From NCBI GenBank assembly GCA_002869205.1, contig PKTJ01000066.1:187-64186 (forward strand): a stretch of 64,000 nucleotides of DNA. The letters run 5' to 3'. The position numbers and the translations under genes were made by a program. Shown in pieces: positions 19,959 through 64,000 of this stretch (positions are counted from its first letter, which is position 1; every line of letters starts with the position of its first letter). Source of the DNA: Candidatus Parcubacteria bacterium. Lineage in GTDB: Bacteria > Patescibacteriota > Patescibacteriia > Magasanikbacterales > UBA922. The notes under the pieces are model-generated. The model was not told the DNA's origin and searched no databases. It worked only from the letters and a program-made list of their open reading frames with translations.

Positions 19959-20034
19959 TGGAGGCGCCGTCAAGAAACGACGCCTGTCGGGGAGGGGAAC
20001 GCCCCGCCGCCCGAAGGCGGCGGGAGTAGAGCGT

Positions 20035-21078
20035 TCAGCGAGTTGTGCGGATCGAGGTGTCCCAGTGGTGGTGGTAGATGATGTGACCGAGGTCTGTGAG
20101 CCACGAGACGACACGGATCTTGCCCGACTTGACGAAGGGGTTCAAGAACTGTCGATTCACGAGCGGGACCGTGTCTGCGACGTAGAGGCGATCGAGCGGC
20201 GAGTGATCGAGCTGCAGGTTCTCCACCGCGTCACCACACAGAATGGCGTGCGTAACGATTGCCCAGAATTCGTGGATCTCGGCACGTTCTCGGACGGTGT
20301 TAGCTGTCCTCAGATTCGTGCTGACTGTCGCCGCTTCATCGTCCACAGACAGAACCAGTGCACCTTCGAGTTCATCGACATCTCGATAGATGTCTTTGAT
20401 CTCGACGTCGCGGCTGTTTCCACGACGTTTGTCACCAAACGTCGTGAAGATGTCACAGTCGAGCTCGTCGGCCACGTTCGTGACAGCTTCCTCATAGCGC
20501 TTCTTGGCGCCGTTGTCTGGGTAGTGTACGACGATCTTGTCGTGAGTTTGCAGCGCTTCTTCGAGCGCCTGCTTGAATACGCGCTTGAACATACTCACTT
20601 CGGTGATGAGACCAGGGTCACCGGCCATCACAACCTGCGAAGCGTGGAGATCGACGGAGATGATTCTGTCGAGTCTGCCTTGCGCGGCCGTCTTCATCAG
20701 CGAGACGATGAGGGGTGGAAGAGCGAACTCGTCGTCAGCTTCGTCTCTGTCGGATCGCGAGAGCGGGAAGTAGGCGGTGATGACGGTGATTCGGGCGGCT
20801 CTTCTGCCTGCCACGTGGTTGAGCAAGAAGAATAGGTTCACGAGCATGTCGGGGGTGCCAGGGCCACTGGTCAAGATCACGCAGTCGTGACCGCCGATGT
20901 GCTTCTTCTTCAGCTTGATGAAGGGTTCTTTGCTGCTGCGCCGACCGAAGATCGGAGACGCGATGTCGACAGGCGTCTCTTTCCTTTCGATCTGCTCTTT
21001 GAGAAGGGTGGCGATGTCTTCGAATCCGGGCATGGGAACGAGCGTGAGCGCGCCGTGCTGGCTGTGTCTGTCTTTCAT
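20035..21078 (-). CDS. divergent ribose-phosphate pyrophosphokinase (PRPP synthetase) family protein, second copy
   Basis: Aligns along its whole length to Prs (HDCVILTSG..RITVITAYFPLSRSDRD..DLHASQ..KRRGNSRDVE..SVDDEAATVST). Signature loops are altered: GYARQDRK becomes PLSRSDRD and DTGGT becomes EAATVST. GAGGG ribosome-binding site 8 nt before the ATG. Confidence 0.7.
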   Translation of the reverse strand: MKDRHSQHGALTLVPMPGFEDIATLLKEQIERKETPVDIASPIFGRRSSKEPFIKLKKKHIGGHDCVILTSGPGTPDMLVNLFFLLNHVAGRRAARITVITAYFPLSRSDRDEADDEFALPPLIVSLMKTAAQGRLDRIISVDLHASQVVMAGDPGLITEVSMFKRVFKQALEEALQTHDKIVVHYPDNGAKKRYEEAVTNVADELDCDIFTTFGDKRRGNSRDVEIKDIYRDVDELEGALVLSVDDEAATVSTNLRTANTVRERAEIHEFWAIVTHAILCGDAVENLQLDHSPLDRLYVADTVPLVNRQFLNPFVKSGKIRVVSWLTDLGHIIYHHHWDTSIRTTR

Positions 21079-21158
21079 AACGAAACCCTCGTAATTAGAT
21101 CAAGAAAACGACCTCCCCGGCCGTCTCCTCGATGTGTGAAATGAGCAAACATGTCACC

Positions 21159-21188
21159 ATAATAATTGTTTTGAGTTGTCATGTCAAC
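21159..21188 (-). promoter_or_regulatory. sigma70-like promoter for the prs-like gene (TTGACA-17-TATTAT)
   Basis: Minus-strand -35 at 21183-21188 and -10 at 21159-21164, between the udk terminator and the prs-like ribosome-binding site. Confidence 0.55.
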
Positions 21189-21202
21189 CATAAAAAAAAC
21201 GA

Positions 21203-21233
21203 ACACCCCGAGGCCGAAGCCACCGGGGTTTTA
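21203..21233 (-). terminator. rho-independent terminator downstream of udk
   Basis: Minus strand AAAACCCCGGTGGC-ttcg-GCCTCGGGGTGTT followed by T8. Confidence 0.65.
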
Positions 21234-21239
21234 GTTCGC

Positions 21240-21863
21240 TCAGGATGGGTGGAATCCGTTGAGCATCTGTTCGAGTCCTGCCTGAATGAACAGGCGTGCG
21301 ATCTCGTTGTTCCCGCCGTGTGGCACGATCAGGTTCGCGTGTCTGCGGGTCGGGTGACAGAATTCGTCGTGCATGGGTGCGACAGTGCCTTCCCATTGCT
21401 CGAGGATACCTTCGAGTTTGCGTCCTCGTTCCAGAACGTCTCGTTTGATACGACGCGCGAGACGTGTGTCTCCGGGCGTGTCGACGTAGATCTTGATCTT
21501 GGCGAGGCTTACCAATTCAGGTACAGCGAGCGCGAGTATTCCTTCGGCGATGATGAACGTTTTTGGGTCCACCTGGACACGCTCAGGTTCACGCGAATGC
21601 GTGTTGTAGTCCCAGCGCGGGGTCTGGACCGATACACCATCGACGAGCTCGCGAACGTGTGACACCATTAGGATGTTGTCGAAAGACCCTGGGTGGTCGA
21701 AGTTGCCGTTCTGGACGTAGGGAGACTCGGGGTCGTAATAGAAGTCGTGGCAGATTCGACAGCACTTGTCATCGCCGAGCATTCGGATGATTTCACGCGC
21801 GAGCGTTGTCTTACCAGAACCAGTGCCACCAGCGACGATGATCACGACAGGCGTGTTTTCCAT
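21240..21863 (-). CDS. udk: uridine/cytidine kinase
   Basis: P-loop GGTGSGKTT, NFDHPGSFD, FIIAEGIL, YVDTPGDTRLARRIKRDVLERGR, ANLIVPHGGNN; near colinear with E. coli Udk. Start placed at MENTPVV, which has GGAGG 9 nt upstream. Confidence 0.85.
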   Translation of the reverse strand: MENTPVVIIVAGGTGSGKTTLAREIIRMLGDDKCCRICHDFYYDPESPYVQNGNFDHPGSFDNILMVSHVRELVDGVSVQTPRWDYNTHSREPERVQVDPKTFIIAEGILALAVPELVSLAKIKIYVDTPGDTRLARRIKRDVLERGRKLEGILEQWEGTVAPMHDEFCHPTRRHANLIVPHGGNNEIARLFIQAGLEQMLNGFHPS

Positions 21864-21959
21864 CTTGAGCTTCCTCCAATTTGCAACAAAGCAGGCCATC
21901 GGCCTGCTCCTTTGTTGTATTTCAGAAATATTGTAACGCTACTTTTGTAGTTTGTCAAA

Positions 21960-22220
21960 TTATTCTACATCTCCATTTTCTTTGATTTTTTCGTCTTCGT
22001 ATGGAGCGATGTGTTTTCTATAGAGTTCGAGTTTACATGATTCAAGTGCACCAACAAGTTCGTTCCAGTCTTTATATCTTCCCTCACCTTTGTTCAATAA
22101 AAGAAGTTTTGTGATGGTGTAATTTAGGTCACCAGCACGCTGGTCTGTGCTTATGAGCTTTGCAAGTTCTGTTATTGTTGGATCAAGACGTTCGCGGTCT
22201 TGTGGTAGGATGTATGGCAT
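21960..22220 (-). CDS. hypothetical protein (86 aa)
   Basis: AT-rich, host-like ORF between island A and prs. Confidence 0.4.
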   Translation of the reverse strand: MPYILPQDRERLDPTITELAKLISTDQRAGDLNYTITKLLLLNKGEGRYKDWNELVGALESCKLELYRKHIAPYEDEKIKENGDVE

Positions 22221-22225
22221 ACAAT

Positions 22226-22317
22226 GAGTTTATAAAGTTTAAAAGTTTAAAAAGTATACAAACTAACTATATGTAAAATACTTTACAAACTTTATAACTT
22301 TAGTAACTTTCGAACTC
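22226..22317. repeat. AAAGTT-motif inverted-repeat element (MITE-like), overlaps the 3' end of prs
   Basis: Left arm GAGTTTATAAAGTTTAAAAGTTTAAAAAG and right arm CTTTACAAACTTTATAACTTTAGTAACTTTCGAACTC are imperfect inverted copies; related elements at 53854-53931 and 54097-54183. Confidence 0.5.
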
Positions 22318-23250
22318 ATTAATAGATTTTACACTTTCATTTTTATGGATTTTTGAAATAATTTCAGCAAATCGTTTGCTCACTGACACTATTTCCAAAT
22401 CTCGTAGGTTGTGATGGTCACTTGGAATTGTGTCAGTAGTAATGAATTTGGTGATAGGGGAGTTGTTTAGTTTTTCACTTGCGCCTACACCCAAATTCGC
22501 GTGTATGAAACATGCATCTACACTCACTGCTCCTGCAGAATTGAGGAGAAATTCAGCATCTTCAATCAATGTTCCACCACTAAGTGTTTCGTCATCAATG
22601 ATAAGACATTTTTTATTTTGTACATCACCAATAACACCTTTGATTTTTACTTTTTCATCATTACCAATTCTACGTTTATCCATCATAGCAACAGGTAAGT
22701 CGAGACTGTCGGCATACGATTCCATCATTTTTGCTGCGCCGCTGTCTCCAGCTACGAGAACATAATTAGATAAATCCCAATTCTGTTTTAGGTGTTTGAT
22801 AATATCTGGTGCCGCAATGAGATGATCACACGGTACGCCGAAGAAGCCATGGAGTTGTGCCGAGTGCATCTCCATGATGAGGACACGGTTTGCACCAGCT
22901 GTCTGTAGCATGTCGGCTATGAGTTTGGCAGTAATACAAATTCGTGGTTGATCTTTTTTGTCTGATCGTGCATATGAAAAGTAGGGGAGAACTGCGGTAA
23001 TTCTTTTTGCAGAAGCATCTCTGAGTGTTCTGATATACATGAGAAGTTCCATGATATGGATGTGTACCGGTGTTGTGTGAGTTTGTATAACAAACACATC
23101 ATCTCCTCGCACAGCCTCATCAACAGTCACAAATTTATCTCCATTACTAAATGTTATAGAAGATGTTTGTGTCTCTTCTATATCCAAGTGTTCACAGATT
23201 TTCTTTACAAATCCTTTGTGGCTGCTACCACCAATAATTTTGAGGGACAT
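22300..23250 (-). CDS. prs: ribose-phosphate pyrophosphokinase (host copy)
   Basis: Canonical motifs DDVFVIQTHT, RITAVLPYFSYARSDKK, MEMHSAQ, IIDDETLSGGTL; AT-rich codon usage. Confidence 0.9.
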   Translation of the reverse strand: MSLKIIGGSSHKGFVKKICEHLDIEETQTSSITFSNGDKFVTVDEAVRGDDVFVIQTHTTPVHIHIMELLMYIRTLRDASAKRITAVLPYFSYARSDKKDQPRICITAKLIADMLQTAGANRVLIMEMHSAQLHGFFGVPCDHLIAAPDIIKHLKQNWDLSNYVLVAGDSGAAKMMESYADSLDLPVAMMDKRRIGNDEKVKIKGVIGDVQNKKCLIIDDETLSGGTLIEDAEFLLNSAGAVSVDACFIHANLGVGASEKLNNSPITKFITTDTIPSDHHNLRDLEIVSVSKRFAEIISKIHKNESVKSINEFESY

Positions 23251-24502: not shown

Positions 24503-24549
24503 CACCCCTCCCTAACCCTCCCCTAATAGGGGAGGGAATGGGTGGGGTT
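24503..24549. repeat. GC-rich nested-palindrome intergenic repeat, copy 2 (inverted orientation)
   Basis: Its reverse complement matches copy 3 nearly base for base. Confidence 0.6.
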
Positions 24550-25964: not shown

Positions 25965-26204
25965 TTATGTAACCAAGAAGTGTGTTCCTACACTTTCTTT
26001 TCTATCTAGAGCCGACTGAGTAATCAATTTTGCTACAGTATGTAAGTTTTTAAGTTCAAGAATTTCTTTGTTTATACCATCGTTTAATATCTCTTTAAGT
26101 TCTATATTGTATTTATTTAATTCTTCAAGTGTTTTTTTCATATTTTCTTCTTTTCGAATAATGCCAACATTATTCCACATCAATTTTTGAATTGATGATT
26201 TCAT
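25965..26204 (-). pseudogene. nadB: L-aspartate oxidase C-terminal helical-domain fragment, separated from the nadB body by an in-frame TAA
   Basis: Sequence LELKNLHTVAKLITQSALDRKESVGTHF matches the NadB/flavoprotein C-terminal domain. It lies in the same frame as 26247-27485, and the only interruption is a TAA inside the 8-bp tandem repeat. Confidence 0.7.
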
Positions 26205-26230
26205 TTTTTTAATTTTTGGATCATTATTTT

Positions 26231-26274
26231 TTCCAACTTTCCAACTTTACAACTTTCCAACTTTCCAACTTTTT
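26231..26274. repeat. 8-bp tandem repeat (CCAACTTT)x5, i.e. AAAGTTGG on the coding strand; the third unit reads AAAGTTGT and creates TAA
   Basis: Read directly from the sequence. Confidence 0.9.
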
Positions 26275-27485
26275 TCTTTTTCAATATATGTTTTTGTTGC
26301 GTCAACTGCTCTCCCACTAAATACCATACACTCTAGCAAAGAGTTTGATGCGAGACGGTTTGCGCCGTGTACTCCTGTGTGTGCGACTTCGCCAAATGCG
26401 AAGAGTCCAGGAATGTTCGTCCGTCCATCGAGGTCTGTATGAATACCGCCGCATATAAAATGTGCAGCAGGGGATATAGGAATCAAATCTTTGTCCATTT
26501 TGATATCATGCCACCAGAGATTTTCATAGAGGTATGGGAAACGTTTTTTTATATAAGCACTTCCTTTGTGTCTAATATCTAAATATACGGTACCATGCTT
26601 CATTTCTTCCAAAATTGCTCGAGCAACTATATCGCGGGGCGCCAAATCTTTCAATTCATGATAGTTTTTCATGAATTGTTCGCCTTTGCTATTTACAAGA
26701 ACACCGCCTTCACCGCGAACTGTTTCTGATATAAGTAACGACGGCGCACCTTTTTTATTAAGAGCAGTTGGGTGAAACTGAATAAATTCCATATCTTTAA
26801 TTTCAGCACGTGCTTTGTATGCCATCGCGACACCATCACCTGTGGCGATTTTTGGATTTGAATTTCTTTCATATACTTGTCCTGCACCGCCGGTTGCAAG
26901 AATTGTTGCCTTTGCAGAGAAATTGAGAATCTTGTTATTATCAGTGTCCAGGACGAATGCACCTATGCATTGTCTTGGTGTTGAGACGCGATCAATCGCG
27001 TCTTTACTTTCGGCTAATTTAAATGCGACATGCGATTCAAATATGGTTATGCGCTTATGGTGGCGCACTTGGTGAATGAGGGCTCGCTCTATTTCTTTGC
27101 CAGTTGTATCGTGTGCATGAGCGATCCTGCGCTCAGAATGTCCACCTTCTTTGGATAGACATAGCTCGTCTTGTTTTTTGCTAAAGCCAACACCGACGTC
27201 GATGAGTCGCTTGATTTGATTTGGTGCTTCTTTGATCATTATCTCTACTGCTTCTTTATCATTCAGATGGCACCCAGCTTTCATAGTATCTTCGATATGT
27301 TTATCAAAACTATCCATCTTATCTAGTACCGCAGCAATACCACCTTGTGCATAGTTGCTGTTGCTTTCCATAAGCTCTTTTTTGGTCACAATAGCGACAG
27401 TTCCATACTCACTTGCTTGCAAGGCAAAATTCAGGCCTGCAATGCCGCTGCCTATTACTAAGAAGTCAAAACTGTTTTTAAACAT
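26247..27485 (-). CDS. nadB: L-aspartate oxidase, FAD-binding and capping domains (412 aa, truncated by a stop inside the repeat)
   Basis: FAD motifs (VIGSGIAGL, RHHK, HYxxGG), in the nadA/nadC neighbourhood. Confidence 0.85.
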   Translation of the reverse strand: MFKNSFDFLVIGSGIAGLNFALQASEYGTVAIVTKKELMESNSNYAQGGIAAVLDKMDSFDKHIEDTMKAGCHLNDKEAVEIMIKEAPNQIKRLIDVGVGFSKKQDELCLSKEGGHSERRIAHAHDTTGKEIERALIHQVRHHKRITIFESHVAFKLAESKDAIDRVSTPRQCIGAFVLDTDNNKILNFSAKATILATGGAGQVYERNSNPKIATGDGVAMAYKARAEIKDMEFIQFHPTALNKKGAPSLLISETVRGEGGVLVNSKGEQFMKNYHELKDLAPRDIVARAILEEMKHGTVYLDIRHKGSAYIKKRFPYLYENLWWHDIKMDKDLIPISPAAHFICGGIHTDLDGRTNIPGLFAFGEVAHTGVHGANRLASNSLLECMVFSGRAVDATKTYIEKEKSWKVGKL

Positions 27486-27495
27486 ATAATATGCT

Positions 27496-27549
27496 GATTT
27501 CCAGATAACCCAGATTTACGGATATCTGAATTATCTGGAAATCCGAATC
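27496..27549. repeat. palindromic intergenic repeat family P (core GGATTTCCAGATAATCCAGATTTACGGATATC), copy 1
   Basis: 13-bp perfect arms GATTTCCAGATAA/TTATCTGGAAATC; 5 copies in the window. Confidence 0.65.
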
Positions 27550-28422: not shown

Positions 28423-28482
28423 ATTGACTATAAAAATTTATTGTGATATGTTTTATAAGTTACACAACGGAAGGAGAGCCCT

Positions 28483-28701
28483 ATGACGTCAAAGGATGTG
28501 GTTGTCACCATCACGATCGGAGATGCAGAAGGTGATCAAGGTATCAAGGTGTCCGGAGATGTTCACCTGACTCACAACGTCGCGAACAGGGCGCTGAATC
28601 TGTTCGCCAGCACGATGCTTCATGCGCTCGGAGAGAGTAGCATGCTCGCGCGTAACTTCTGGAGTGCGATCTCGAATCTCGCATCAACGGTCCGTAAGTA
28701 G
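28483..28701 (+). CDS. GC-rich island B: hypothetical 72-aa protein inserted inside the NAD operon
   Basis: GC-rich codons in an AT-rich operon. GGAAGGAG ribosome-binding site 6 nt upstream; TTGACT-17-TATGTT promoter 2 bp from the nadC start. A tiny ORF (MPMEVQYI, 28737-28763) with its own GGAGGA site follows. Confidence 0.55.
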   Translation: MTSKDVVVTITIGDAEGDQGIKVSGDVHLTHNVANRALNLFASTMLHALGESSMLARNFWSAISNLASTVRK

Positions 28702-28830
28702 GACTAGTGAGGTTCGGTGACCATGGAGGAAAGGACATGCCCATGGAAGTACAGTATATATGAATTTCGTTTATACTGTTCTATCATGGGTAAATAATTT
28801 TGAAAAGGACTGTAGAGATACGGTTCTTTT

Positions 28831-30184: not shown

Positions 30185-30227
30185 GAGTTAGAAAGTTTAT
30201 AAAGTGAAAAAGTTTTAAAGTTTACAG
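30185..30227. repeat. AAAGTT-motif repeat (GAGTTAGAAAGTTTATAAAGTGAAAAAGTTTTAAAGTTTACAG) in the nadE-nadA gap
   Basis: Shares GAGTTAGAAAGTTTA-AAAGT with the in-frame repeat at 42577-42616. Confidence 0.5.
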
Positions 30228-31830: not shown

Positions 31831-31894
31831 CGGATTTCCGGATAATCCAGATTTACAGATATCTGTCGATCAGGATTATCCGGAGATAAGGATC
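31831..31894. repeat. palindromic intergenic repeat family P, copy 2 (between rplJ and rplL)
   Basis: CGGATTTCCGGATAATCCAGATTTACAGATATCTGTCGATCAGGATTATCCGGAGATAAGGATC. Confidence 0.65.
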
Positions 31895-36122: not shown

Positions 36123-36123
36123 T

Positions 36124-37891: not shown

Positions 37892-37907
37892 AATATTGAG
37901 ATACGGA

Positions 37908-46037: not shown

Positions 46038-46070
46038 TTCGGATTTCCAGATAATTCAGATTTACGGATA
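46038..46070. repeat. palindromic intergenic repeat family P, copy 4 (half element abutting the dtd start codon)
   Basis: TTCGGATTTCCAGATAATTCAGATTTACGGATATG, where the final ATG is the dtd start. Confidence 0.6.
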
Positions 46071-52013: not shown

Positions 52014-52100
52014 AGATCCTGATATTCGGATACCCTTAGGGCATTTCTCTCCGGGAATAATCCAGATTTACAGATATCACATCCGTAGATCTGGATTATC
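52014..52100. repeat. palindromic intergenic repeat family P, copy 5 (with an ACCCTTAGGGCATTTCTCTCCGGG insert)
   Basis: ATTCGGATACCC...AATCCAGATTTACAGATATC...ATCTGGATTATCCGGAAATCAG. Confidence 0.65.
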
Positions 52101-52126
52101 CGGAAATCAGTATATAAAATAGTTTT

Positions 52127-54096: not shown

Positions 54097-54183
54097 AGTT
54101 TTTAAAGTTTCTAAAGTTGAAAAGTTCATAAAGAGTAAAATGTGTATGGAACTTTTAACTTTATGAACTTTATAACTTTTTAC
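54097..54183. repeat. AAAGTT-motif inverted-repeat element upstream of pyk
   Basis: TTTTTAAAGTTTCTAAAGTTGAAAAGTTCATAAAG ... GAACTTTTAACTTTATGAACTTTATAACTTTTTAC. Confidence 0.5.
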
Positions 54184-55627: not shown

Positions 55628-55711
55628 TGCGTAGTAGGGGGTGTGCCTGCCCGTCCGAAGCCTCGGCGTAGGAGGGTGAATATGCTTGAGGTGAGAGAGG
55701 TGGGGTAAATA
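55628..55711 (+). pseudogene. GC-rich relic of a second pyruvate kinase C-terminus (..VVGGVPARPKPRRRRVNMLEVREVG*) immediately after the pyk stop
   Basis: In-frame translation matches the host pyk tail VVAGEPVGHAGHVNLLEVREVK, with G/C at the synonymous positions. Confidence 0.5.
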
Positions 55712-55727
55712 ATATTTTAAACAAAAA

Positions 55728-55756
55728 AACATCGCCTGTATGGCGGTGTTTTTAAT
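55728..55756 (+). terminator. rho-independent terminator
   Basis: CATCGCC-tgta-TGGCGGTG followed by a T-run. Confidence 0.6.
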
Positions 55757-55864
55757 TATACTAACTTCGCTCTGTTTGGACTCATTATCTTCGTCTTTTA
55801 ACAAAGCTAATGAATCGGGCGGGAGCGAAGGTAGCATGGTTGTGAGTAGCAGTCGCGCCGTCCG

Positions 55865-56575
55865 CTAGTTCACGGTGTGGTCGTCGCGCCACCTGGCACA
55901 GATGTCGTCCGGGTACTTCCACGTACCGTCGTCTCGGGTGTCGAGACAGTGGATCATCGGATCTTCCTGTGAGGTAGAGATGTTGTAGGATGTGCCATCT
56001 GGTGTGATGATGATGACCGTCGAGGTGATCGGCTTGTCACCTTCATGTTTCCAGTCAGTCGGTCCACGATACGGGCGAGGGGAGATGTCGAGGTGGGTGT
56101 TTTCATCGCAGTTCTTACCCTCGATGTAGAAGCAGCGACCGTATTCCGGGATGGGATAGATGCCGTGAAACTCTATGTGACAGACCGCGTGCGTGATGCA
56201 CTCGTGAGGAAGTTCCTCACCGAGACAGTCACTCACGGTGGCGCACTCGTAGTTGTCGTAGTCTGGCGCGGGGAGCTCCGACGCTTCGATCGAATCGACG
56301 TAGATGAACGAGTCGACTTCGATTTCACCCACGAGAACCCACTCGTAGATGGATCCGTCCGGCGTCCAGAAGGGGCCGTCGAGCCAGATGACTTCATCAC
56401 GCTTGGGTTGTGCCGCCATCGTGGCGGCCTTGTCCAGCGTCTTCATCTTATCCGTCGAGTCCTGCTGCTCGGCTTCCAGGGACGCGCCGAATCCGATCGC
56501 GATCGACGCGAACAGGACGAGGGTCATCATAGGGACGTTGACGATGGTTCTGATGCTGGCCGCTCGGTTGCTCAT
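55865..56575 (-). CDS. secreted/membrane-anchored cysteine-rich hypothetical protein (~236 aa)
   Basis: Signal/TM segment MMTLVLFASIAIGFGASLEA and 10 Cys. Start placed at MSNRAAS, which has AGGAG 7 nt upstream. The plus-strand ORFs 56045-56710 and 56349-56807 are Arg-rich antisense artefacts. Confidence 0.6.
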   Translation of the reverse strand: MSNRAASIRTIVNVPMMTLVLFASIAIGFGASLEAEQQDSTDKMKTLDKAATMAAQPKRDEVIWLDGPFWTPDGSIYEWVLVGEIEVDSFIYVDSIEASELPAPDYDNYECATVSDCLGEELPHECITHAVCHIEFHGIYPIPEYGRCFYIEGKNCDENTHLDISPRPYRGPTDWKHEGDKPITSTVIIITPDGTSYNISTSQEDPMIHCLDTRDDGTWKYPDDICARWRDDHTVN

Positions 56576-56626
56576 TTTCGAGCTCCTCATTGTGTCCGTG
56601 GGCTTTTTCGAGCCCTGTTGCGATTC

Positions 56627-56818
56627 TTATCTTCCGAGACTGCAGGTGCCACAGTGCTTGCCGCAGTATCCTCCGCCCTGGCAAATGCCACGAGGTTCTT
56701 TGGGAGGTAGTGGCGGAAGGTCCTTGAACCTTTCTTCCATCGGAAGCAGCGGAGCTTTCTCCTGGTCTCCTTCCGGAACTGCGATTTCTTCTGGGTCTGT
56801 GGTATGACGAGAGGTCAT
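56627..56818 (-). CDS. small Cys-rich protein (63 aa from MTSRHTT; C-terminal CQGGGYCGKHCGTCSLGR)
   Basis: AGAGGAG 6 nt before the internal ATG; four Cys in a C-x5-C-x3-C-x2-C arrangement; sits 50 bp upstream of the secreted protein gene. Confidence 0.5.
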   Translation of the reverse strand: MTSRHTTDPEEIAVPEGDQEKAPLLPMEERFKDLPPLPPKEPRGICQGGGYCGKHCGTCSLGR

Positions 56819-56963
56819 CGGTGACTCCTCTATGCTGGAGAGTACGTTAATCATTTTTTACCAAAAAAACGGTATTTTGTCAATGTTATGTAAGAATAGT
56901 GGGACGTTTTGATTCCCGATTATTTTATGGTATACTTATGACCACTATTTCTAACCTTATTTT

Positions 56964-59900
56964 ATGGTTGCAAAGGGGGCGAAAAAATCTCGAAAAGACA
57001 AACATATTTTGTGGTTCAAAGAAATCGGCATCAAGGATGTTCCACTTGTTGGTGGAAAGAATGCAAGTCTTGGAGAGATGTATAACACGGTTACAAAAAA
57101 AGGCATCAATGTCCCAAATGGTTTTGCAGTTACCGCTGCGGCATATTGGGATTTTTTGGATAAAACAAATCTGAAAGCAAAGATAAAAAAAGAATTAAAA
57201 GATCTCGATGTAACAAATGTTCGTGAGCTTGCACGTGTAGGAAAAAAAGTTCGCAACATGGTTCTTGCAGCAAAATTTCCTGCACATTTGGAAAAGGAAG
57301 TGGAAAAAGCATATGCAGAATTATCTAAACTAGAAAAAACAAAAAATATCGCAGTTGCTGTGCGATCTAGTGCAACTGCAGAAGATTTGCCTGATGCGAG
57401 TTTTGCTGGTCAGCAAGAAACATATTTGAATATAAAAGGCGTCAAGTCACTTCAGACTGCAGTAAAAAAGTGTGTCGCGTCGCTCTTTACGAATCGCGCC
57501 ATCTCATATCGTGAGACAAAAGGATTTGACCATCTCACTGTTGCCCTGTCAGTTACGGTTCAGGTGATGGTTCGTTCAGATGTGGGTTCTTCTGGAGTAC
57601 TCTTTACACTCGATACAGAATCAGGTTTTCCTGGAGTGGTACTCATCAATTCATCCTACGGTCTTGGAGAATACGTGGTAAAGGGTCGGGTAACACCAGA
57701 TCAATTTTATGTTTTCAAAGAAGGAATAAAACAAGGCAAAAAATCTATTATTAGTAAAATTATTGGTTCAAAAGAAGTAAAACTTGTATATGGAGCCACT
57801 AGTGGTACGAAGCAACTTGCAGTAAAGAAAGCTGATCAAAATAAATTTTCTATTACACCAGATGAGGTTATTAAATTGACGAAATGGGGAATGCAGATTG
57901 AAGAGCACTATAAACGACCTCAAGATATTGAATGGGCAAAAGATGGTAAGACAGGAAAGCTCTATATTGTCCAAGCTCGACCTGAGACAGTAAAATCTCA
58001 TACAAATAAATCGGTGATTGAGACATATATTCTCAAGAAAAAGGGTAAACAAGCACTTACCGGTATTTCAGTAGGACAAAAGATTGGTGCAGGAAAAGTT
58101 CGTGTGATTGACAATCCAAAGCAGATGAAACAGTTCAAAAAAGGCGAAGTGCTCGTGACTCGTATCACTGATCCAGACTGGGAACCAATCATGCGTATTG
58201 CAAGTGCTATTGTCACAGAGCAGGGTGGTAAGACAAGTCATGCTGCTATTGTAAGTCGTGAGCTTGGTGTGCCATGTGTTGTTGGTGCGCGTGCTGCACG
58301 CAAGACTTTGAAAACAGGGAAACAGGTTACCGTGAGTTGTGCTGAGGGCGATGAGGGTATTATTTATAATGGTATTCTTCCGTTTGAAGTCAAGAAAACT
58401 GAAATTAAAAAAGTAGAAAAAACAAAAACAAAAATCATGATGAATGTTGGTGATCCTGACAATGCATTTAGTTTGTCATTTTTACCAAATAATGGCGTAG
58501 GTCTGGCACGTGAAGAATTTATTTTTTCCAATTTTATCCGTATTCATCCACTTGCGCTCGTTCACTACAATAAGCTCAAGGATAAGAAAGCCAAGAAAAA
58601 GATTGCTGAGATGACAAAAGGGTATAAGAAAAAGACTGACTATGCAGTAGATAAGCTTGCGGAAGGTATTGCACGAATTGCAACAGCATTTTATCCAAAT
58701 GAAGTAATTGTTCGCTTGTCTGACTTCAAAACAAATGAATATGCAACACTTCTTGGTGGAAAAGAATTTGAACCAAAAGAAGAAAACCCAATGATTGGAT
58801 GGCGTGGGGCAAGTCGTTATTATTCAAAAGAATATAAGCCAGGATTTAAGATTGAGTGTGAAGCACTCAAGAAAGTTCGTAATGAATGGGGTCTGACCAA
58901 TGTGATTACTATGGTGCCATTTTGTCGTACACCAGAAGAAGGAAAAAACGTGCTCAAGACTATGGCAGACTTTGGGCTCAAACAAGGTGAGAATGACCTC
59001 AAAGTATACGTAATGTGTGAAATCCCAAGTAATGTTATCTTGGCAGAAGAGTTTGCAAAATTATTTGACGGATTTAGTATTGGGTCAAATGATTTGACTC
59101 AGCTTACTTTGGGTGTTGATCGTGATTCATCTCTAGTGAGTCATGTGTATAGTGAAAAAAATAAGGCAGTAACTAAATTGATTCGTGATGTGATTCGTGT
59201 TGCCCACAAACATAAGCGAAAAGTAGGTATTTGTGGACAAGCTCCGAGTGATTATCCTGAATTTGCAGAGTTTTTGGTACGTGAAGGTATTGATAGTATT
59301 TCTCTTAATCCTGATACCGTTGTTTCTACGCGTGAACGTATTGCCTATGTAGAAAAAACTCTAGGAAAGAAAGGTAAGAAGACACACAAATCATATCTTG
59401 GTCTTGTTGCCGGTCTTGCTGTCCTTTCTGCTAGTCTGATGATGGTGGGTGGTGGCTGTGATTCAATTCGAGGTGATTTACCAACCCCTCATACCGACCT
59501 CATCGATATGAGCCCTGCAGAGATTCGTGAACGTGTAGAGAAAAAATTAAATGAAACACAGGAATTAGAAAAACAAAAACCAACACAAGAATTAAAAGTA
59601 AATAGTTTTGAACATTTTTCAATCAAATATCCACAAGAATGGTCTGTAGAAAATTGGAATGGTGGTGTCACGATGAGAAATAATGAGACAGGGGAGTATG
59701 TGAGTTTGTTTGATCAGCTTGTTGGTCACCCTGTGGCAGAAGGTGTGAAGGAGATTGTTACAGTTGGTGGAAAAGATGCAACGAGGTATGTAGAAGATTA
59801 TAAGGGTGACGATACAGAGTCAGCATCATTTACCGTAGTTGAGATTGATATGGAAGGATATGTTTTTGAAATCAACAGCAATGCAGATAATTTTGATGAT

Positions 59901-60098
59901 ATCTTAGACACGTTGGTATTTGTCTCAGAAGATTCGCCAGACAGACCACTAACACACTGGGATGTGAGAGAGAAGCGTGTGTGTATACAGATGATCACCT
60001 ATGCTCGCCAAGGAAGTGAGGGTATGTGTGAAGTATTTCCTACACCGTGTGACGTACCTGATGGGTGGAATGTCTGTGACGCAACAGACCTAGAATAA
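56964..60098 (+). CDS. ppsA: phosphoenolpyruvate synthase (pyruvate, water dikinase) with ~240-aa C-terminal extension
   Basis: VGGKNASLGEM start and PEP-utilizing His domain (GGKTSHAAIVSRELGVPCVVG). The canonical end near SLNPDTVV is followed in-frame by KKGKKTHKS-YLGLVAGLAVLSASLMMVGGGC (a lipoprotein-like signal peptide) and a Cys-containing domain. Confidence 0.85.
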   Translation: MVAKGAKKSRKDKHILWFKEIGIKDVPLVGGKNASLGEMYNTVTKKGINVPNGFAVTAAAYWDFLDKTNLKAKIKKELKDLDVTNVRELARVGKKVRNMVLAAKFPAHLEKEVEKAYAELSKLEKTKNIAVAVRSSATAEDLPDASFAGQQETYLNIKGVKSLQTAVKKCVASLFTNRAISYRETKGFDHLTVALSVTVQVMVRSDVGSSGVLFTLDTESGFPGVVLINSSYGLGEYVVKGRVTPDQFYVFKEGIKQGKKSIISKIIGSKEVKLVYGATSGTKQLAVKKADQNKFSITPDEVIKLTKWGMQIEEHYKRPQDIEWAKDGKTGKLYIVQARPETVKSHTNKSVIETYILKKKGKQALTGISVGQKIGAGKVRVIDNPKQMKQFKKGEVLVTRITDPDWEPIMRIASAIVTEQGGKTSHAAIVSRELGVPCVVGARAARKTLKTGKQVTVSCAEGDEGIIYNGILPFEVKKTEIKKVEKTKTKIMMNVGDPDNAFSLSFLPNNGVGLAREEFIFSNFIRIHPLALVHYNKLKDKKAKKKIAEMTKGYKKKTDYAVDKLAEGIARIATAFYPNEVIVRLSDFKTNEYATLLGGKEFEPKEENPMIGWRGASRYYSKEYKPGFKIECEALKKVRNEWGLTNVITMVPFCRTPEEGKNVLKTMADFGLKQGENDLKVYVMCEIPSNVILAEEFAKLFDGFSIGSNDLTQLTLGVDRDSSLVSHVYSEKNKAVTKLIRDVIRVAHKHKRKVGICGQAPSDYPEFAEFLVREGIDSISLNPDTVVSTRERIAYVEKTLGKKGKKTHKSYLGLVAGLAVLSASLMMVGGGCDSIRGDLPTPHTDLIDMSPAEIRERVEKKLNETQELEKQKPTQELKVNSFEHFSIKYPQEWSVENWNGGVTMRNNETGEYVSLFDQLVGHPVAEGVKEIVTVGGKDATRYVEDYKGDDTESASFTVVEIDMEGYVFEINSNADNFDDILDTLVFVSEDSPDRPLTHWDVREKRVCIQMITYARQGSEGMCEVFPTPCDVPDGWNVCDATDLE

Positions 60099-60135: not shown

Positions 60136-61173
60136 ATGCATATGATGTTATCTCAAAAAGAAAAATTATTTTTAATACCTCTTGGGCTTGTTGCTATTGT
60201 GGTAGCTGCGGTTGGTGGGTATGTTATTTCTGAAGTGGGTTTTTCTGGAGGTGGTGAGGAAAGACAAATAGTTTCATATAGTGAAGAATCACCTGATCAA
60301 GATGAAAATAAGATCGATACTAAAGTGGAGGATCAGATGATTTCGTGTGTCATGGTAGACAAAAGTTTGGATATTGTTCCAGACGAAGGTCTGGGTGTGT
60401 ATTACAAGACACGCTTGTTTCCTGTAGAGACAAATGTTAGGCATGATATTTTTGTAAATGATTCAGCAATTATTGCGTTTAAACATTTTAATGGAGGAGG
60501 GGACCCCTATAATTATGATGAGGAAAAGTGGAGTAAGTTTGCTGGACAAGGACCTTCTTATTTTGTCGAAATGCTAGATTTTTCTGCACCTAGGAATGTT
60601 TCTGTTATCCCAACTTTTTCTATTCCTCATGAGGTTATTACCAATGACAATTTTATGGGTAATATCACAAATGTGAGTTATGGTGATAGTTGGTTTATTT
60701 TCTCTCGGGGGTTTGCAGCGTTTACTGGTTCGGTGGTGGATCAGAGATTGACAGAGGTTGCCTATGATCGTAAGTTTCGAGAGATTGTTATTCCAGAAGA
60801 ATACACTGCTGATCCAGAATTTCGTTCTGGTCCGGTTCATGGTTTTACTGTTAATAATAATACGTCAACCATAGGAGACATGCTTGGTCTTTTGCGTGAT
60901 GATACCATTGTGTTTTCTTTGCAAAAAAATACTAGTACATATATTGGTTATGAAATAAAAAATGACTCATGGATAGAAGTTTCTGTAGATGAGATATATG
61001 ATGTTGATATGACAGTCTATGAAGAGGTTGGTGGACCACGTATATACAAACCCCTTGATCTTATCAAGGAGTATGGTTGTTTTGCACTTCCAACACCGCG
61101 TGGTGATATGGTTTTTACGTCGCATGAGCTTGGTAATCTGAATGACGAGATGGATGTGTGGTTTGCTCGATAG
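60136..61173 (+). CDS. hypothetical membrane-anchored protein (345 aa)
   Basis: N-terminal TM helix; no known motif. Confidence 0.45.
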   Translation: MHMMLSQKEKLFLIPLGLVAIVVAAVGGYVISEVGFSGGGEERQIVSYSEESPDQDENKIDTKVEDQMISCVMVDKSLDIVPDEGLGVYYKTRLFPVETNVRHDIFVNDSAIIAFKHFNGGGDPYNYDEEKWSKFAGQGPSYFVEMLDFSAPRNVSVIPTFSIPHEVITNDNFMGNITNVSYGDSWFIFSRGFAAFTGSVVDQRLTEVAYDRKFREIVIPEEYTADPEFRSGPVHGFTVNNNTSTIGDMLGLLRDDTIVFSLQKNTSTYIGYEIKNDSWIEVSVDEIYDVDMTVYEEVGGPRIYKPLDLIKEYGCFALPTPRGDMVFTSHELGNLNDEMDVWFAR

Positions 61174-61292
61174 GAATATAACATAATATCAAAAAATGAT
61201 CCGGAGAGGGTCATTTTTTATTTGCTTTTTATTTTTGGTCGTGTTAGGTTTTATATATTGTCAACAATGTTCTCCACCAGATGAGGTCTGAT

Positions 61293-62045
61293 ATGAGCAT
61301 CAGGTTTACGTGTGAAGTCGAGACGCCTGACGGTGTCGTGCGATTCGTTCTTGATTCGTGGCGTTCTTCGTCGGAGGATGATCGAACCATCGAGCCGGAG
61401 TTCTATGTGGATTACTGTGCGGATGGTCAGATCCCGCAGGGTCCTCATCACGAGGTCGAGATCCTCGAGCCGGCGAAGATCGGTGGTCACGAGCACGAAG
61501 AAGTCATCCACTATCACATCAATCGTGGTGGTGGGCAGTTCGTGTGCTGGACCGGTTCTCTGCCGTCGCTCAGTGCGGTCAGTACCATGCTTCGCGTGTG
61601 GTGTGCTGGGACTGCCTTCACCATGGCGACTGGTAAGGACTTCACGGTCGAGTTCGAGGGTGATTTCGATCAGATCGTACGCGGCCTTTCTGAGGCCGGA
61701 TACAAGGTAGTTCTGTGTCGTAACGACCTGCAGCAGTTCGAAATTAGTATGACGTTTTCTCATAACGTGACATGGTCTGCTTTCAGCTCACCGCTGGTCA
61801 AGGAGATCGTGGCGCGGCTGCCGCGTGAGCAAGAAGACGTCTTGCGTGCAGTAGTAGAACACTTGCGTTCTCGCACACCACACGAGAACGGCGCGATCGA
61901 AGACAGTCTCATGGTTGCCTGGGGTGTGTTCTGTCAGAGGCTTCGGGGTAATTTGGACCTCAGCGAGCCTATCGCGACGCCATTGGCGATCGGTGATCTG
62001 AGCGGGTGGGTTCTGTGGGCTGAAGAAAGCGCCAACATGTGCTGA
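61293..62045 (+). CDS. hypothetical cytoplasmic protein (250 aa)
   Basis: ORF with GC-rich codon usage; start placed at MSIRFT, which has GAGGT upstream. Confidence 0.5.
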   Translation: MSIRFTCEVETPDGVVRFVLDSWRSSSEDDRTIEPEFYVDYCADGQIPQGPHHEVEILEPAKIGGHEHEEVIHYHINRGGGQFVCWTGSLPSLSAVSTMLRVWCAGTAFTMATGKDFTVEFEGDFDQIVRGLSEAGYKVVLCRNDLQQFEISMTFSHNVTWSAFSSPLVKEIVARLPREQEDVLRAVVEHLRSRTPHENGAIEDSLMVAWGVFCQRLRGNLDLSEPIATPLAIGDLSGWVLWAEESANMC

Positions 62046-62118
62046 AGGGAGGGTGTTGTGGCACGTTCACCACCAAGGGGAAGCCCTGACTGATCGCACC
62101 GAACAGTCGGGGACAGTC

Positions 62119-62190
62119 AAAAACAGTCTAGTTTATAGACTGTTTTTTTGTGTTTTTACCCTTGACATAAGGGTTTTTTTGTGATACAAC
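62119..62190 (+). promoter_or_regulatory. terminator hairpin (AAAAACAGTCTA-gttta-TAGACTGTTTTT) followed by sigma70-like promoter TTGACA-17-TACAAC
   Basis: Perfect palindrome 62119-62150; -35 at 62162-62167, -10 at 62185-62190; AGGAG at 62227-62231 before the ATG at 62239. Confidence 0.6.
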
Positions 62191-62238
62191 TCGAGCAGGT
62201 TTGAGAAAGCGAAACCAGGAAACAACAGGAGTGACATC

Positions 62239-63060
62239 ATGTCGCATAAGAATAGTTCGCGTTCGTTCATGCAGAACCTCGGTACGTACCGTGTGCAGCG
62301 TAGAATCTTCATTTTTTCGACACTTATCTCTCTGATCGTGATGTGTTCACTGCGTTCGGATAGCAGCGACGACCAAGAACAAGAGGTCGCTGTGTCAGCC
62401 ACTCCTGTCATCGTGCCGACGCAGTCCGGTCGTCCGGCGATTCCTGGACCGCTCGAGATTCCGAGCGATGAATTCAGGAAGTGGTCGGCCAAAGAGCTTG
62501 ATCGAATCGTGCGTACACACCCGAGTGAATTGATCTCTCGAGATCTGCTCGGACATGTCGAGGCACGTCCTCGCCGAGTTCATCCGAGTTTCGCTCTCGT
62601 CGAGACACCGGTACCACGCATGGCACAAGCGTTTTGCGATCTTCTGCCAAGCAGTGGAACTCGCGTGGGCTTCACCATCTTTCCGAGACTGTTCTTTGCA
62701 GACAATGTCTCGGATGTGGATCGTTACACCGCGCTTTACCATGAGTATGACCATATCGCCGAGATGCTGGCAGACCCATCCCTGTGTCCGTTTTTCTCAG
62801 AGACATGGGTCGGCACGTCTCTCGAGGTCCGTAGGTTTTTTGACCTCGAGATGCAGGCCTACAGCGCGGCATGTGAATTCGAGATCGTACATGAGCTTGT
62901 GGACCGGGCGCACCAGTCGGGCTGTCGCATATATCGCGATCAGGGTCCGGAGACTTATCTGAGGCTCACCTCTACACGTCTCGAAGCTATGCCGATCTTC
63001 GCGCCGTACCGGAACAAGCTTCTGGGATGGGCGCGTGAGTACATCGAACATAATCGTTAG
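62239..63060 (+). CDS. membrane-anchored HExxH-motif protein (putative zinc metallopeptidase-like)
   Basis: N-terminal hydrophobic segment IFIFSTLISLIVMC and a YHEYDH (HExxH) motif; otherwise unknown. Confidence 0.5.
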   Translation: MSHKNSSRSFMQNLGTYRVQRRIFIFSTLISLIVMCSLRSDSSDDQEQEVAVSATPVIVPTQSGRPAIPGPLEIPSDEFRKWSAKELDRIVRTHPSELISRDLLGHVEARPRRVHPSFALVETPVPRMAQAFCDLLPSSGTRVGFTIFPRLFFADNVSDVDRYTALYHEYDHIAEMLADPSLCPFFSETWVGTSLEVRRFFDLEMQAYSAACEFEIVHELVDRAHQSGCRIYRDQGPETYLRLTSTRLEAMPIFAPYRNKLLGWAREYIEHNR

Positions 63061-63147
63061 GCTGAGGAGGTGCCTCAAGAACCCGACGCCCAAAGCGTCT
63101 GGCTGGTCCCGCAGGGATCATTCAGCGAGCGTGCATCGGGATCAGTC

Positions 63148-63209
63148 AAAAACAGCTTTTTCTAAAAGGCTGTTTTTGTTTTGACCCACTCACAAAAACA
63201 TGTTAAAAT
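63148..63209 (+). promoter_or_regulatory. second copy of the terminator-promoter spacer module (hairpin, then TTGACC-17-TAAAAT)
   Basis: CAGTCAAAAACAGC...GCTGTTTTTGTTTTGACCC parallels the module at 62110-62167. Confidence 0.55.
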
Positions 63210-63350
63210 AATCCACCTGTGATAAGGCGCGTGAGCGTTTTGTCACGGTTTTTTGTAATGTTGAGACAGAGGAGTGGGTTTGATAGCTTTGTTTGTGTCG
63301 GGATTGGCCCGTCGCTGGCAAGGTGTCTAACTCACTTTTCGAGGTAGTCC

Positions 63351-63974
63351 ATGCGCGTTTGTAGCTTGTTCTCGATCCTGGTTCTCAGTGTCTCTTTCTC
63401 CTTCCTCGCTGCGTGCAACGATGATTCGTCTGGCGGCAGCGGTACGGTGGAGGAGACTGAGTACATCTCCTGCAATCCGGCTATGGGAGGTGACTGCCCG
63501 GATGGATCCTCGTGCGCTCGTCTCGAAGGCGATGCGCACACGCTCTCGGTATGCGTCCAGGACGAGCACGTGCCCTGTGTCGCCGACTTCGAGTGCGATG
63601 GCGGGCAGTGTATCTCCGTCCAGGGTCTTCAGCAGACCATCTGCACTCAGTCCTTGGCTGAAGATATCGGCTGTCCGTTCTACGGCTTTGATGAGCTCGA
63701 GTACGAGGTGAAGGTCGGGAACGAGACGTTCTACTTGCTCACCGAGTATGTCTCGGAATCGTGTGAGCTGTCCATGAGGCTGAAGTCCGACCTTAGCAAC
63801 ATGGCCTGGCATTACGTCTTGTACGTCGATGAGGATGACAGCCTCCGTGGCGTCGTCGGCAATGGCGCCCAGGTCGAAGTCCTTCACCTCAGCTTGGGCT
63901 GGATCCAGGTTCGTGAGACCGATCCGGACGGCGGCGCCGACCCGATCGAATACACCTTCTTCCTCGTACCGTAG
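63351..63974 (+). CDS. cysteine-rich lipoprotein, hypothetical
   Basis: Signal peptide with canonical lipobox FLAAC and about 14 Cys. The minus-strand ORF 63327-63887 is judged antisense. Confidence 0.55.
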   Translation: MRVCSLFSILVLSVSFSFLAACNDDSSGGSGTVEETEYISCNPAMGGDCPDGSSCARLEGDAHTLSVCVQDEHVPCVADFECDGGQCISVQGLQQTICTQSLAEDIGCPFYGFDELEYEVKVGNETFYLLTEYVSESCELSMRLKSDLSNMAWHYVLYVDEDDSLRGVVGNGAQVEVLHLSLGWIQVRETDPDGGADPIEYTFFLVP

Positions 63975-64000
63975 CCCAGCTTCGGTGGCTGAGGATCTTA

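Follow-up and report, generated by a model that had tools for sequence, protein, structure and literature searches.

How do sharply bounded blocks of GC-rich genes, each gene preceded by a Shine–Dalgarno (SD) site, come to lie in an AT-rich chromosome whose own genes are almost free of such sites? The question is raised by a contig of Candidatus Parcubacteria bacterium (PKTJ01000066.1, assembly GCA_002869205.1), of which a stretch of 64,000 nucleotides, referred to here as the window, contains four such blocks, islands 1–4. Judged by its sequence, the host is a Magasanikbacteria-like member of the Patescibacteria (candidate phyla radiation, CPR), an ultra-small bacterium of groundwater type with a G + C content of 38%; a search with PpsA found its nearest relatives among Magasanikbacteria genomes, at 70–74% identity. 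Patescibacteria have tiny genomes and are dependent on other cells, so that each accessory gene is informative about their lifestyle. Horizontal gene transfer (HGT) accounts for up to 13% of their genome length, with 83% of transfers taking place within the phylum (PMC12455944). The islands described here are probably natural foreign gene cassettes, derived mostly from GC-richer, SD-using Patescibacteria, and not all of them are recent arrivals.

The boundaries of the islands were drawn from a 500-nucleotide G + C profile and a two-state Viterbi segmentation, which placed GC-rich blocks at 19960–21910 (56.6% GC), 55816–56846 (57.4%) and from 61309 to the end of the window (54.7%), in a background of 38%. 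A preliminary description of this DNA, made from the letters alone, had proposed four GC-rich islands at 19960–21915, 28483–28763, 55628–56855 and from 61262 to the window end, and the segmentation agrees with these coordinates almost to the base. The four intervals have G + C contents of 56.5, 52.0, 54.9 and 54.5%, with z-scores of 13.8, 3.8, 9.6 and 14.7, each above every host window of equal length. Composition is not uniform in the tetranucleotide profile either, and the islands are outliers in both: their tetranucleotide distance to the host is 0.67–0.79, and that of 2-kb chunks of host sequence is at most 0.25. The G + C content at third codon positions (GC3) is 0.53–0.77 in the eight island genes and 0.19–0.40 in approximately 52 host genes. 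The host values for the three codon positions are 0.51, 0.34 and 0.29, and the contrast between islands and host therefore lies mainly at synonymous sites.

The islands are small, only 0.3–2.8 kb each. Island 3 is composite, consisting of an 81-nucleotide GC-rich piece (55628–55708), a spacer of 30% GC that contains a terminator, and then its genes. Island 4 extends approximately 26 nucleotides beyond the end of the window and is followed, after one host gene (patatin), by a fifth island that encodes a 177-amino-acid lipoprotein. Every island lies between host genes, as had been proposed, and the adjoining host terminators are intact, both that of dnaE (19916–19955) and that of the gene at 60136–61173 (61191–61219).

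The contrast extends to the signals for translation. An SD-like motif (GGAGG, GAGGAG, AGGAG or GAGG), sought 4–18 nucleotides 5′ of the start codon, is present at all eight island genes and at one of 52 host genes (Fisher test, p = 3.5e-9), and the sole host ‘match’ is part of a terminator stem. The rate at which SD tetramers arise by chance in GC-rich sequence of the island type is 0.106 per 15-nucleotide window, and for three island genes the SD-bearing start is the one picked by the NCBI or JGI gene callers. In other AT-rich loci, SD-like tetramers precede none of 23 host genes in L006, none of 23 in L007 and none of 16 in L010 (L numbers denote the loci of relatives that were fetched for comparison). 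The anti-SD motif is absent from approximately half of Parcubacteria 16S rRNAs (PMC9297842). Other signals that had been thought to be confined to the islands turned out to be shared. Promoters of the form TTGACA-N17-TATAAT are found in the host before tRNA-Glu (31006), before the L10 leader (31136) and at 48424; ordinary intrinsic terminators with G + C stems are present in the host; and TGA stops end four of the 52 host genes, compared with three of the eight island genes (p = 0.04). The original observation is partly confirmed: composition, position and SD sites set the islands apart, but promoters, terminators and stop codons do not. An alternative genetic code was also considered and rejected, as translation table 11 gives long host reading frames and TGA serves as a stop codon in the host too.

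Most of these genes form self-contained units. Seven of the eight have a promoter-like site, an SD and a 3′ hairpin or inverted repeat of their own. The motif TTGACA-N17-TAnnnT stands 5′ of the units in islands 1 and 3, promoter-like sites also occur 5′ of the open reading frame (ORF) in island 2 and of the second and third genes in island 4, and a hairpin or inverted repeat follows each cassette gene that is seen to its end. The promoters sit in AT-rich spacers (41–49% GC). No promoter of its own was found for the gene I3_236 in island 3, which starts 36 nucleotides downstream of a small ORF and probably shares its promoter. The cassettes would be expressed from these signals and, as the host genes lack SD sites, they represent a natural experiment. 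If the ribosome still reads the SD, the cassette genes are a specially controlled class; otherwise the SD sites are relics.

Comparison with relatives indicates how the islands came to occupy their positions. The gene prs and the convergent dnaE are approximately 115 nucleotides apart, with no island between them, in L090 and L091; nadA and nadC are 8 nucleotides apart in L088; and pyk and ppsA are less than 100 nucleotides apart in L006 and L007, again with no island. Since the flanking genes are adjacent in relatives, all four islands are insertions. Island 2 looks to split an apparent operon junction, to which it lies antisense. These island-free relatives are distant, at approximately 60–78% amino acid identity, and a scan of metagenomes with the host Prs recovered four relatives, none closer than 78%, so the comparison does not define the exact boundaries of insertion. 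A tblastn search of the island proteins against the loci of 80 relatives found no shared islands. The horizontal acquisition that had been proposed is supported by the island-free synteny together with an SD signal of which the host genome makes no use.

Hallmarks of mobile elements were not detected. No integrase, transposase or phage gene was found among the island ORFs or the annotated ORFs of the flanks and the window, and a comparison with PHROGs gave only generic Prs and kinase matches and no structural genes. The tRNA genes of the window (at 31049, 53776 and 53938) do not abut an island, no convincing direct or inverted repeats were found at the island edges, and no attC-like site was found in the window. 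The flanking genes are core genes: dnaE, prs, nadA, nadC, pyk and ppsA.

Island 1 contains two cassettes on the minus strand. Its left edge, at the segmentation boundary 19960 and directly past the intact dnaE terminator, consists of two G + C-rich hairpins 3′ of the first gene, one with a CUUCGG loop (19960–20034; fold −40.8 kcal/mol, z −4.4). The gene itself (20035–21078; GC 57%, GC3 0.73, TGA stop) encodes PrsL, a divergent ribose-phosphate pyrophosphokinase-like protein of 347 amino acids. PrsL scores 92.4 bits against TIGR01251 (cut-off 113), compared with 307 bits for the host Prs, which is encoded two genes away (22300–23250). It matches Prs entries in the PDB at E values down to 1e-18 and retains the DLHA, DKRR and DT.PL motifs, its Pfam matches are at or below threshold, and its ribose-5-phosphate loop reads DDEAATVST, compared with DDxxDTxGT. 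Because it falls below the TIGR01251 cut-off and has an altered ribose-5-phosphate loop, PrsL is filed here as a putative Prs-like paralogue and not as Prs. The preceding region (21079–21187) carries a promoter, TTGACA-N17-TATTAT (21159–21187), a leader hairpin (21099–21133; z −2.9) followed by a U-run, and the SD GAGGG.

The second cassette is arranged in the same manner. Its gene (21240–21863; GC 56%, GC3 0.66, TGA stop, SD GGAGG) encodes Udk, a protein of 207 amino acids that its family matches identify as a bona fide uridine kinase: it reaches 219.5 bits against the equivalog NF004018 (cut-off 180), 196 bits against TIGR00235, just under the cut-off of 220, and E 2.9e-32 against Pfam PRK, and NCBI calls the identical protein uridine kinase. 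Its terminator (21188–21239) is a G + C-rich hairpin with a UUCG loop followed by T8 (−23.2 kcal/mol, z −4.3), and a similar hairpin lies 3′ of the Udk homologue in L092. Upstream are a leader hairpin (21884–21917; z −3.6) and the promoter TTGACA-N17-TACAAT (21930–21958), within an AT-rich right edge of the island (21864–21958) that abuts the stop codon of a DUF6899 gene. The order of promoter, stable leader hairpin with U-run, and SD holds in every PrsL or Udk cassette examined (z −2.9 to −4.1), including those in relatives (L099, 5954–5978; L092, approximately 239–268; L103, approximately 1690–1712). From its layout, this leader resembles a transcription attenuator for nucleotide-salvage genes. 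Rfam gave no riboswitch or leader match in the islands, whether the entire window was searched at the gathering score or island 1 at E values up to 5.

The distribution of homologues bears on the source of these genes. PrsL has 264 homologues at E ≤ 0.001, and every named one among the 120 listed is from the Patescibacteria; the best match other than itself is 53% identical and those listed are 44–53% identical. Udk has a best match of 58% identity, and its best named matches, at 45–51%, are from Thermoanaerobaculia/Acidobacteriota and Gemmatimonadota. The PrsL gene is at native composition in L085, a 63% GC CPR contig in which most genes have an SD, and in L096, a Yanofskybacterium of 40% GC in which its GC3 is 0.34 and its stop is TAA. 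It is a GC-rich islet in L086 (a complete 1.0-Mb genome of 44% GC), in L099/L100 (Magasanikbacteria GWE2_42_7), in L103 (flanks of 39–44% GC) and in the window (38% GC). L085 shows that possible donors are present within the Patescibacteria, and so does L084, a Magasanikbacterium of 52% GC in which approximately one-third of the genes have an SD. Beside another PrsL homologue, in L105 (5388–6657), there is a diversity-generating-retroelement pair, a bAvd accessory protein and a reverse transcriptase.

The cassettes of island 1 also share a location with those of relatives. The slot is bounded by the tsaD/prs block and the 3′ end of dnaE. It is empty in L090 and L091; L092 has Udk between tsaD and dnaE, with 58% GC between flanks of 38–40%; L099/L100 have PrsL between tsaD and dnaE (GC3 0.66 vs 0.39); L103 has PrsL between prs and dnaE (GC3 0.63 vs 0.34–0.40); and the window has both. 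The same-slot copies of PrsL are 47–54% identical to one another, the adjacent C-termini of dnaE 54–56%, and other host orthologues 50–70%; the two same-slot copies of Udk, from the window and L092, are 59% identical. At this level of protein divergence (47–59% identity), synonymous sites must be saturated, and yet the cassettes in this slot have a GC3 that is 0.25–0.45 above that of the host and retain SD, leader hairpin and terminator. As the same-slot cassettes are as diverged as the dnaE C-terminus, island 1 lends no support to the ‘very recent’ acquisition that had been proposed. A neighbour-joining tree of the 120 PrsL homologues was star-like, which left vertical descent and repeated import indistinguishable; the copy in L099 is only the 50th most similar to that of the window. 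Two readings of the slot are possible: it may hold old residents whose composition is maintained, or it may be a turnover hot spot re-supplied by GC-rich relatives. Congruent divergence and conserved regulatory anatomy favour long residence; turnover is favoured by the star-like tree, by the host-like composition of PrsL in L096 and by the fact that closer relatives have the slot empty.

A different type of evidence comes from the left edge of island 3. In frame, right after the stop codon of the host pyk, lies a GC-rich ghost of the pyk 3′ end (55628–55708, plus strand). Its translation, VVGGVPARPKPRRRRVNMLEVREVG, can be compared with that of the host pyk, VVAGEPVGHAGHVNLLEVREVK, each ending in a stop. 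The DNA alignment of ghost and host pyk scores 47, compared with 15.2 ± 6.3 and a maximum of 38 in 2000 shuffles, and the GC3 of the ghost is 0.58 vs 0.35 in the host. The ghost contains the motif VNLLEVREV, which is kept in the Magasanikbacteria L005–L007 and not in L013. From this GC-rich, Magasanik-type tail, we infer that the incoming DNA of island 3 began inside the pyk of a GC-richer relative. A systematic search for further ghosts of flanking genes in the islands gave only noise besides the pyk tail. Read-through of the pyk TAG (55625–55708) would append this second, diverged 26-codon copy of the tail to the protein.

Could the islands be artefacts, or parts of a mobile element? An assembly chimera or a binning error that joined GC-rich reads to an AT-rich contig was a reasonable concern, since metagenome-assembled genomes of uncultured bacteria are prone to chimeras and the coverage given in the ENA contig names is low (approximately 4.5–4.9×). 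Look-ups by exact protein showed that several public records contain the islands, next to the same genes. The junctions are carried by an NCBI contig of a metagenome-assembled genome (74.6 kb, ‘Candidatus Parcubacteria bacterium’, locus tags C0581_*), two ENA contigs (ERZ794998), two JGI contigs (3300007102) and the Logan assembly of run SRR5894287, all at 99.94–100% identity to the window, and some of these records may stem from one sample. Several findings speak against a chimera: identical junctions recur in no fewer than four assemblies or collections, a separate sequencing run among them; each lies precisely between intact genes and terminators; and only one of 19 inter-assembly single nucleotide polymorphisms is located inside an island. 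The stronger argument is that unrelated studies have yielded genomes with equivalent islets at the orthologous locus, and that such islets are also present in a complete genome of 1.0 Mb; on these grounds both a chimera and an engineered insertion, which the preliminary description had entertained, are excluded for practical purposes. A synthetic or benchmark insertion is likewise rejected, as the sequences are present in public assemblies. That the islands are what is left of a prophage or some other mobile element, whether phage morons, integron cassettes or a miniature integrative element, is very improbable. The promoter–gene–terminator units of deviant composition do resemble phage morons, a 3′ module is common to three cassettes, and a PHROG family of phage Prs was matched at E 2e-18. 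However, the window lacks an integrase, a transposase, phage structural genes and attC-like sites, the flanks are core genes and no tRNA gene adjoins an island; among 2.9 million viral contigs, none has a relative of PrsL and two match the 3′ module, which is about the number estimated by chance.

Two further explanations concern the source and age of the cassettes. The first, which is unlikely, is that they were transferred very recently from a high-GC organism outside the phylum, such as the host cell of an episymbiont, and kept an un-ameliorated composition. The named homologues of Udk in Thermoanaerobaculia/Acidobacteriota and Gemmatimonadota fit a high-GC donor, and islands 2–4 are lineage-specific orphans, as would be expected of recent arrivals. 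A donor of this type, as suggested originally, is nevertheless opposed for PrsL by the exclusively patescibacterial names among the 120 of 264 homologues listed and for the edge of island 3 by the ghost pyk tail with its C-terminal motif of Magasanikbacteria; a non-CPR origin may still apply to Udk. Moreover, the only named homologue of the island 4 protein I4_273 is from Parcubacteria, no match above 58% identity was found in any high-GC lineage, and Udk and PrsL cassettes common to one locus at 47–59% identity do not fit a recent event. Conversely, the cassettes could be long-term residents, their composition held by selection, for example as an SD-dependent class or for mRNA stability, or by GC-biased conversion at hot spots. 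We consider this improbable. In its favour, the same slot is occupied in three diverged lineages by PrsL and in two by Udk, at GC3 values of 0.63–0.73 and with SD, leader hairpin and G + C hairpin terminator all retained; the divergence of PrsL (47–54%) equals that of the dnaE C-terminus (54–56%); I4_273, too, has its closest homologue in a GC-rich islet with an SD, on an unrelated contig of 42% GC; and even the pyk tail is GC-rich in the copy that lies inside an island. On the other hand, the fully host-like PrsL of L096 indicates that the gene itself does not demand a high G + C content, the cassette is missing from L090 and L091, which are closer relatives, and the occurrence of all four states of occupancy suggests turnover, the tree is star-like with L099 as distant as described above, and we can point to no known mechanism that would hold GC3 0.4 above that of the genome.

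The favoured explanation remains the natural acquisition of foreign cassettes on more than one occasion. Self-contained units of one to three genes would have entered the gaps between genes of a 38% GC chromosome that lacks SD sites, with GC-richer Patescibacteria that use SD as the most likely source of the DNA. The route may have been the uptake of DNA and its illegitimate or homology-assisted recombination into permissive positions, terminator junctions for instance, and would have involved no integrase, transposase, attachment site or target duplication. The acquisitions would differ in age, with Udk and PrsL belonging to a variable slot by the dnaE 3′ end that holds none, one or both. Several observations weigh against this explanation. 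A donor genome was not found, the best matches of PrsL and Udk being 53 and 58% identical; I3_236 matched only itself, four other island genes are singleton 90% clusters and I4_273 has 11 distant homologues. The best named matches of Udk, in Acidobacteriota and Gemmatimonadota, mean that not every cassette need be derived from Patescibacteria. The ghost pyk tail is a duplication and not a replacement, which plain homologous recombination would not predict. Slot cassettes that had been inherited vertically should have decayed to the GC3 of the host, as in L096 (0.34), and because their G + C content persists despite divergence, simple HGT with amelioration does not explain the cassettes of the dnaE slot. 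The persistence of GC-rich, SD-bearing cassettes in a shared slot across diverged lineages is the one unexplained feature of this locus.

In this respect, it is conceivable, though we think it rather unlikely, that SD-less Patescibacteria keep a long-lived class of GC-rich, SD-dependent genes, the composition of which is maintained or renewed at fixed slots. If true, a second regime of expression and composition would exist inside one tiny genome. In searches of the open-access literature, no description of GC-rich SD cassettes in a shared slot was found. To find one type of GC-rich cassette repeatedly in a single slot, in relatives that have diverged, calls into question the treatment of deviant G + C content as proof of recent transfer, on which detectors of genomic islands build. 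Furthermore, islets of this kind should be retained in metagenome-assembled genomes and not be removed as contaminants. The imported genes here would supply nucleotide salvage and surface or secreted functions.

The cassettes are an unusually clean, moron-like example of something already known, namely HGT islets. Phage morons, a concept from the Hendrix laboratory, are independent promoter–gene–terminator units of deviant composition that lie between phage genes. The likeness is in autonomous units with atypical composition and accessory cargo between undisturbed genes; the difference is that the recipient here is a cellular chromosome, with insertion between core genes and no phage genes nearby. 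In the amelioration model of Lawrence and Ochman, deviant G + C content and codon usage are the signature of foreign origin. Classical genomic islands are similar in having deviant composition and being absent from relatives, but the islands here have no tRNA target, integrase or direct repeat and are 0.3–2.8 kb each; and, unlike the expectation of an amelioration clock, their G + C signature is kept in copies as diverged as host orthologues. Integron cassettes are also small, mostly single-gene units arranged head to tail, as in island 4, and a 3′ element is found in three of the cassettes described here. However, integron cassettes are promoterless, with attC, near intI, and those of the islands have their own promoters and a 3′ module made of a 13–20-nucleotide motif and an ordinary terminator hairpin, present in three cassettes with no integrase in the window. 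In naturally transformable bacteria, homology-facilitated illegitimate recombination integrates foreign linear DNA without a dedicated recombinase (PMC3240628). The ghost pyk tail is reminiscent of this, as incoming DNA with homology to the insertion site, but the pyk end is duplicated and the opposite flank has no donor-type tract; this mechanism may have acted here. The closest parallel is the survey of HGT in Patescibacteria (PMC12455944, mSystems 2025), in which, as far as its accessible text goes, foreign genes make up a large share of small CPR genomes, pass mostly between Patescibacteria and bring metabolic and surface functions. Islands were detected there with IslandViewer and MetaCHIP, and single-gene promoter–SD–terminator cassettes, a contrast in SD use and slot recurrence were not found in that part of the article.

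The cargo is accessory and, as predicted from the encoded proteins, comprises pyrimidine and phosphoribosyl pyrophosphate salvage enzymes, a candidate membrane-anchored zincin-like protease, lipoproteins and other secreted proteins, and small orphans. Apart from PrsL and Udk, homologue searches cover I3_236 and I4_273, and the other four island genes are singleton 90% clusters. A PADLOC search gave just P-loop noise for Udk and indicated no defence system. Island 2 (28424–28790, plus strand) is inserted antisense between nadC and nadA. It consists of a promoter-like TTGACT-N17-TATGTT (28424–28452), the SD GGAAGGAGAG (28469–28478), an orphan ORF of 72 amino acids (28483–28701; GC3 0.64; a singleton cluster; NCBI C0581_05070) and a 25-nucleotide inverted repeat (28740–28790). 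The genes of island 3 are on the minus strand. I3_236 (55865–56575; GC3 0.77, SD GAGGAG) is an orphan, probably secreted protein of 236 amino acids, or 241 if the first ATG is the start, with 10 Cys and a signal or anchor at its N-terminus; its reading frame is backed by GC3 and its start is that of NCBI C0581_05225. Only the protein itself was found among 5.8 billion proteins, and there was no match in Pfam, NCBIfam, PHROG or PADLOC. The small ORF upstream (56627–56854; 63 or 75 amino acids, SD GAGGAG), for which no homologues were found, has the promoter TTGACA-N17-TAAAAA (56854–56883) and a Cys-rich C-terminus, GICQGGGYCGKHCGTCSLGR. This tail recalls a small secreted or modified peptide.

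Island 4 is arranged head to tail on the plus strand. Its first gene, I4_254 (61281–62045; GC3 0.64, TGA stop), encodes an orphan, apparently cytoplasmic protein of 250 (start at 61293) or 254 amino acids, for which a single-sequence AlphaFold2 (AF2) model was uninformative (predicted local distance difference test, pLDDT, 34). It is followed by a first copy of the shared 3′ module, TCGGGnnCAGTCAAAArCAG with a hairpin and T-run (62107–62149), and by the promoter TTGACA-N17-TACAAC (62162–62190) of I4_273. The latter (62239–63060; GC3 0.59, SD AGGAG) encodes 273 amino acids and is a candidate membrane-anchored, zincin-like metallopeptidase, with an invariant HExxH (H168, E169, H172) and E204; a Foldseek search of its zincin-like model against the PDB gave no significant match. 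Its 11 distant homologues form an alignment too divergent for a scan of loci; the only named one is a Parcubacteria group bacterium, and the closest (34% identity) is the GC-rich, SD-bearing islet in L107. A second copy of the module (63136–63178) and a promoter-like TTTGAC-N17-TTAAAAT after it (within 63136–63209) precede a predicted orphan lipoprotein of 207 amino acids (63351–63974; lipobox LAAC, Cys-rich, GC3 0.76). JGI also calls this ORF on the plus strand, and the ENA call on the opposite strand is probably wrong. The exact 13-mer of the module occurs only after I4_254, I4_273 and the gene of island 5, where the third copy lies at 13429–13470 of L093, and is otherwise absent from the window and the other fetched loci, which suggests a common source for the three cassettes.

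Genes that are GC3 outliers, alone or in small groups and mostly with an SD, also stand among near-SD-less host genes in L005, L007, L086, L096, L099 and L107. In L005 (Magasanikbacteria GW2011_GWC2_37_14), islets at 13151–15490 and 19157–22615 have 51–60% GC in a 37% GC genome and encode a 729-amino-acid secreted protein with Cys-rich repeats and a protein with thrombospondin-type-3-like DxDxDG repeats, both unrelated to the islands of the window. Secreted proteins with repeats of these two types are common in high-GC, Myxococcota-like bacteria, and these islets would fit a high-GC donor from outside the phylum. L107, a 198-kb metagenome contig of 42% GC without SD, has four single-gene islets (488–1204, 3309–3977, 8001–8783 and 9083–9724) of 56–61% GC and GC3 0.76–0.79, with SD-like sites, one of which is just a G-run; these include the closest homologue of I4_273, with its HExxH, and a SWEET-type transporter.

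The host sequence of the window has repeated motifs of its own. The motif ACTTTATAAACT, or near-copies of it, lies 10–30 nucleotides 5′ of several start codons, for example at 13772–13783, 22227–22238 (minus strand), 30194–30205 (minus strand) and 54158–54169. An intergenic repeat, GGATTTCCAGATAATyCAGATTTACGGAT, sometimes present as an inverted pair, is located 3′ of several genes (27495–27544, 31832–31860, 46041–46069 and 52081–52109, with degenerate copies near 37895–37985). A second repeat, CCCCACCCrTTCCCTCCCCT, is found at 3694–3713, 24528–24547 (minus strand) and 45386–45405; two of the copies are followed by ATTAGGGGAGGG, and the pair would fold as a hairpin.

Some host genes also differ in structure between records or relatives. 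NadB is split into a 412-amino-acid ORF and a 79-amino-acid ORF for the C-terminal domain (25965–27485, minus strand), a split that is common to L088–L090; in L099 it is a single gene of 492 amino acids. The Pif1-type helicase at 47104–48417 is one ORF of 437 amino acids in the window and the JGI contig and two (279 and 140 amino acids) in the ENA assembly, which has a single nucleotide polymorphism relative to the window at 47941. The PEP synthase (56964–60098) has a C-terminal extension of approximately 250 amino acids, with a predicted transmembrane segment and an extra domain, that is also found in the Magasanikbacteria locus L005, and the gene next to it (60136–61173) is an orphan with an N-terminal anchor.

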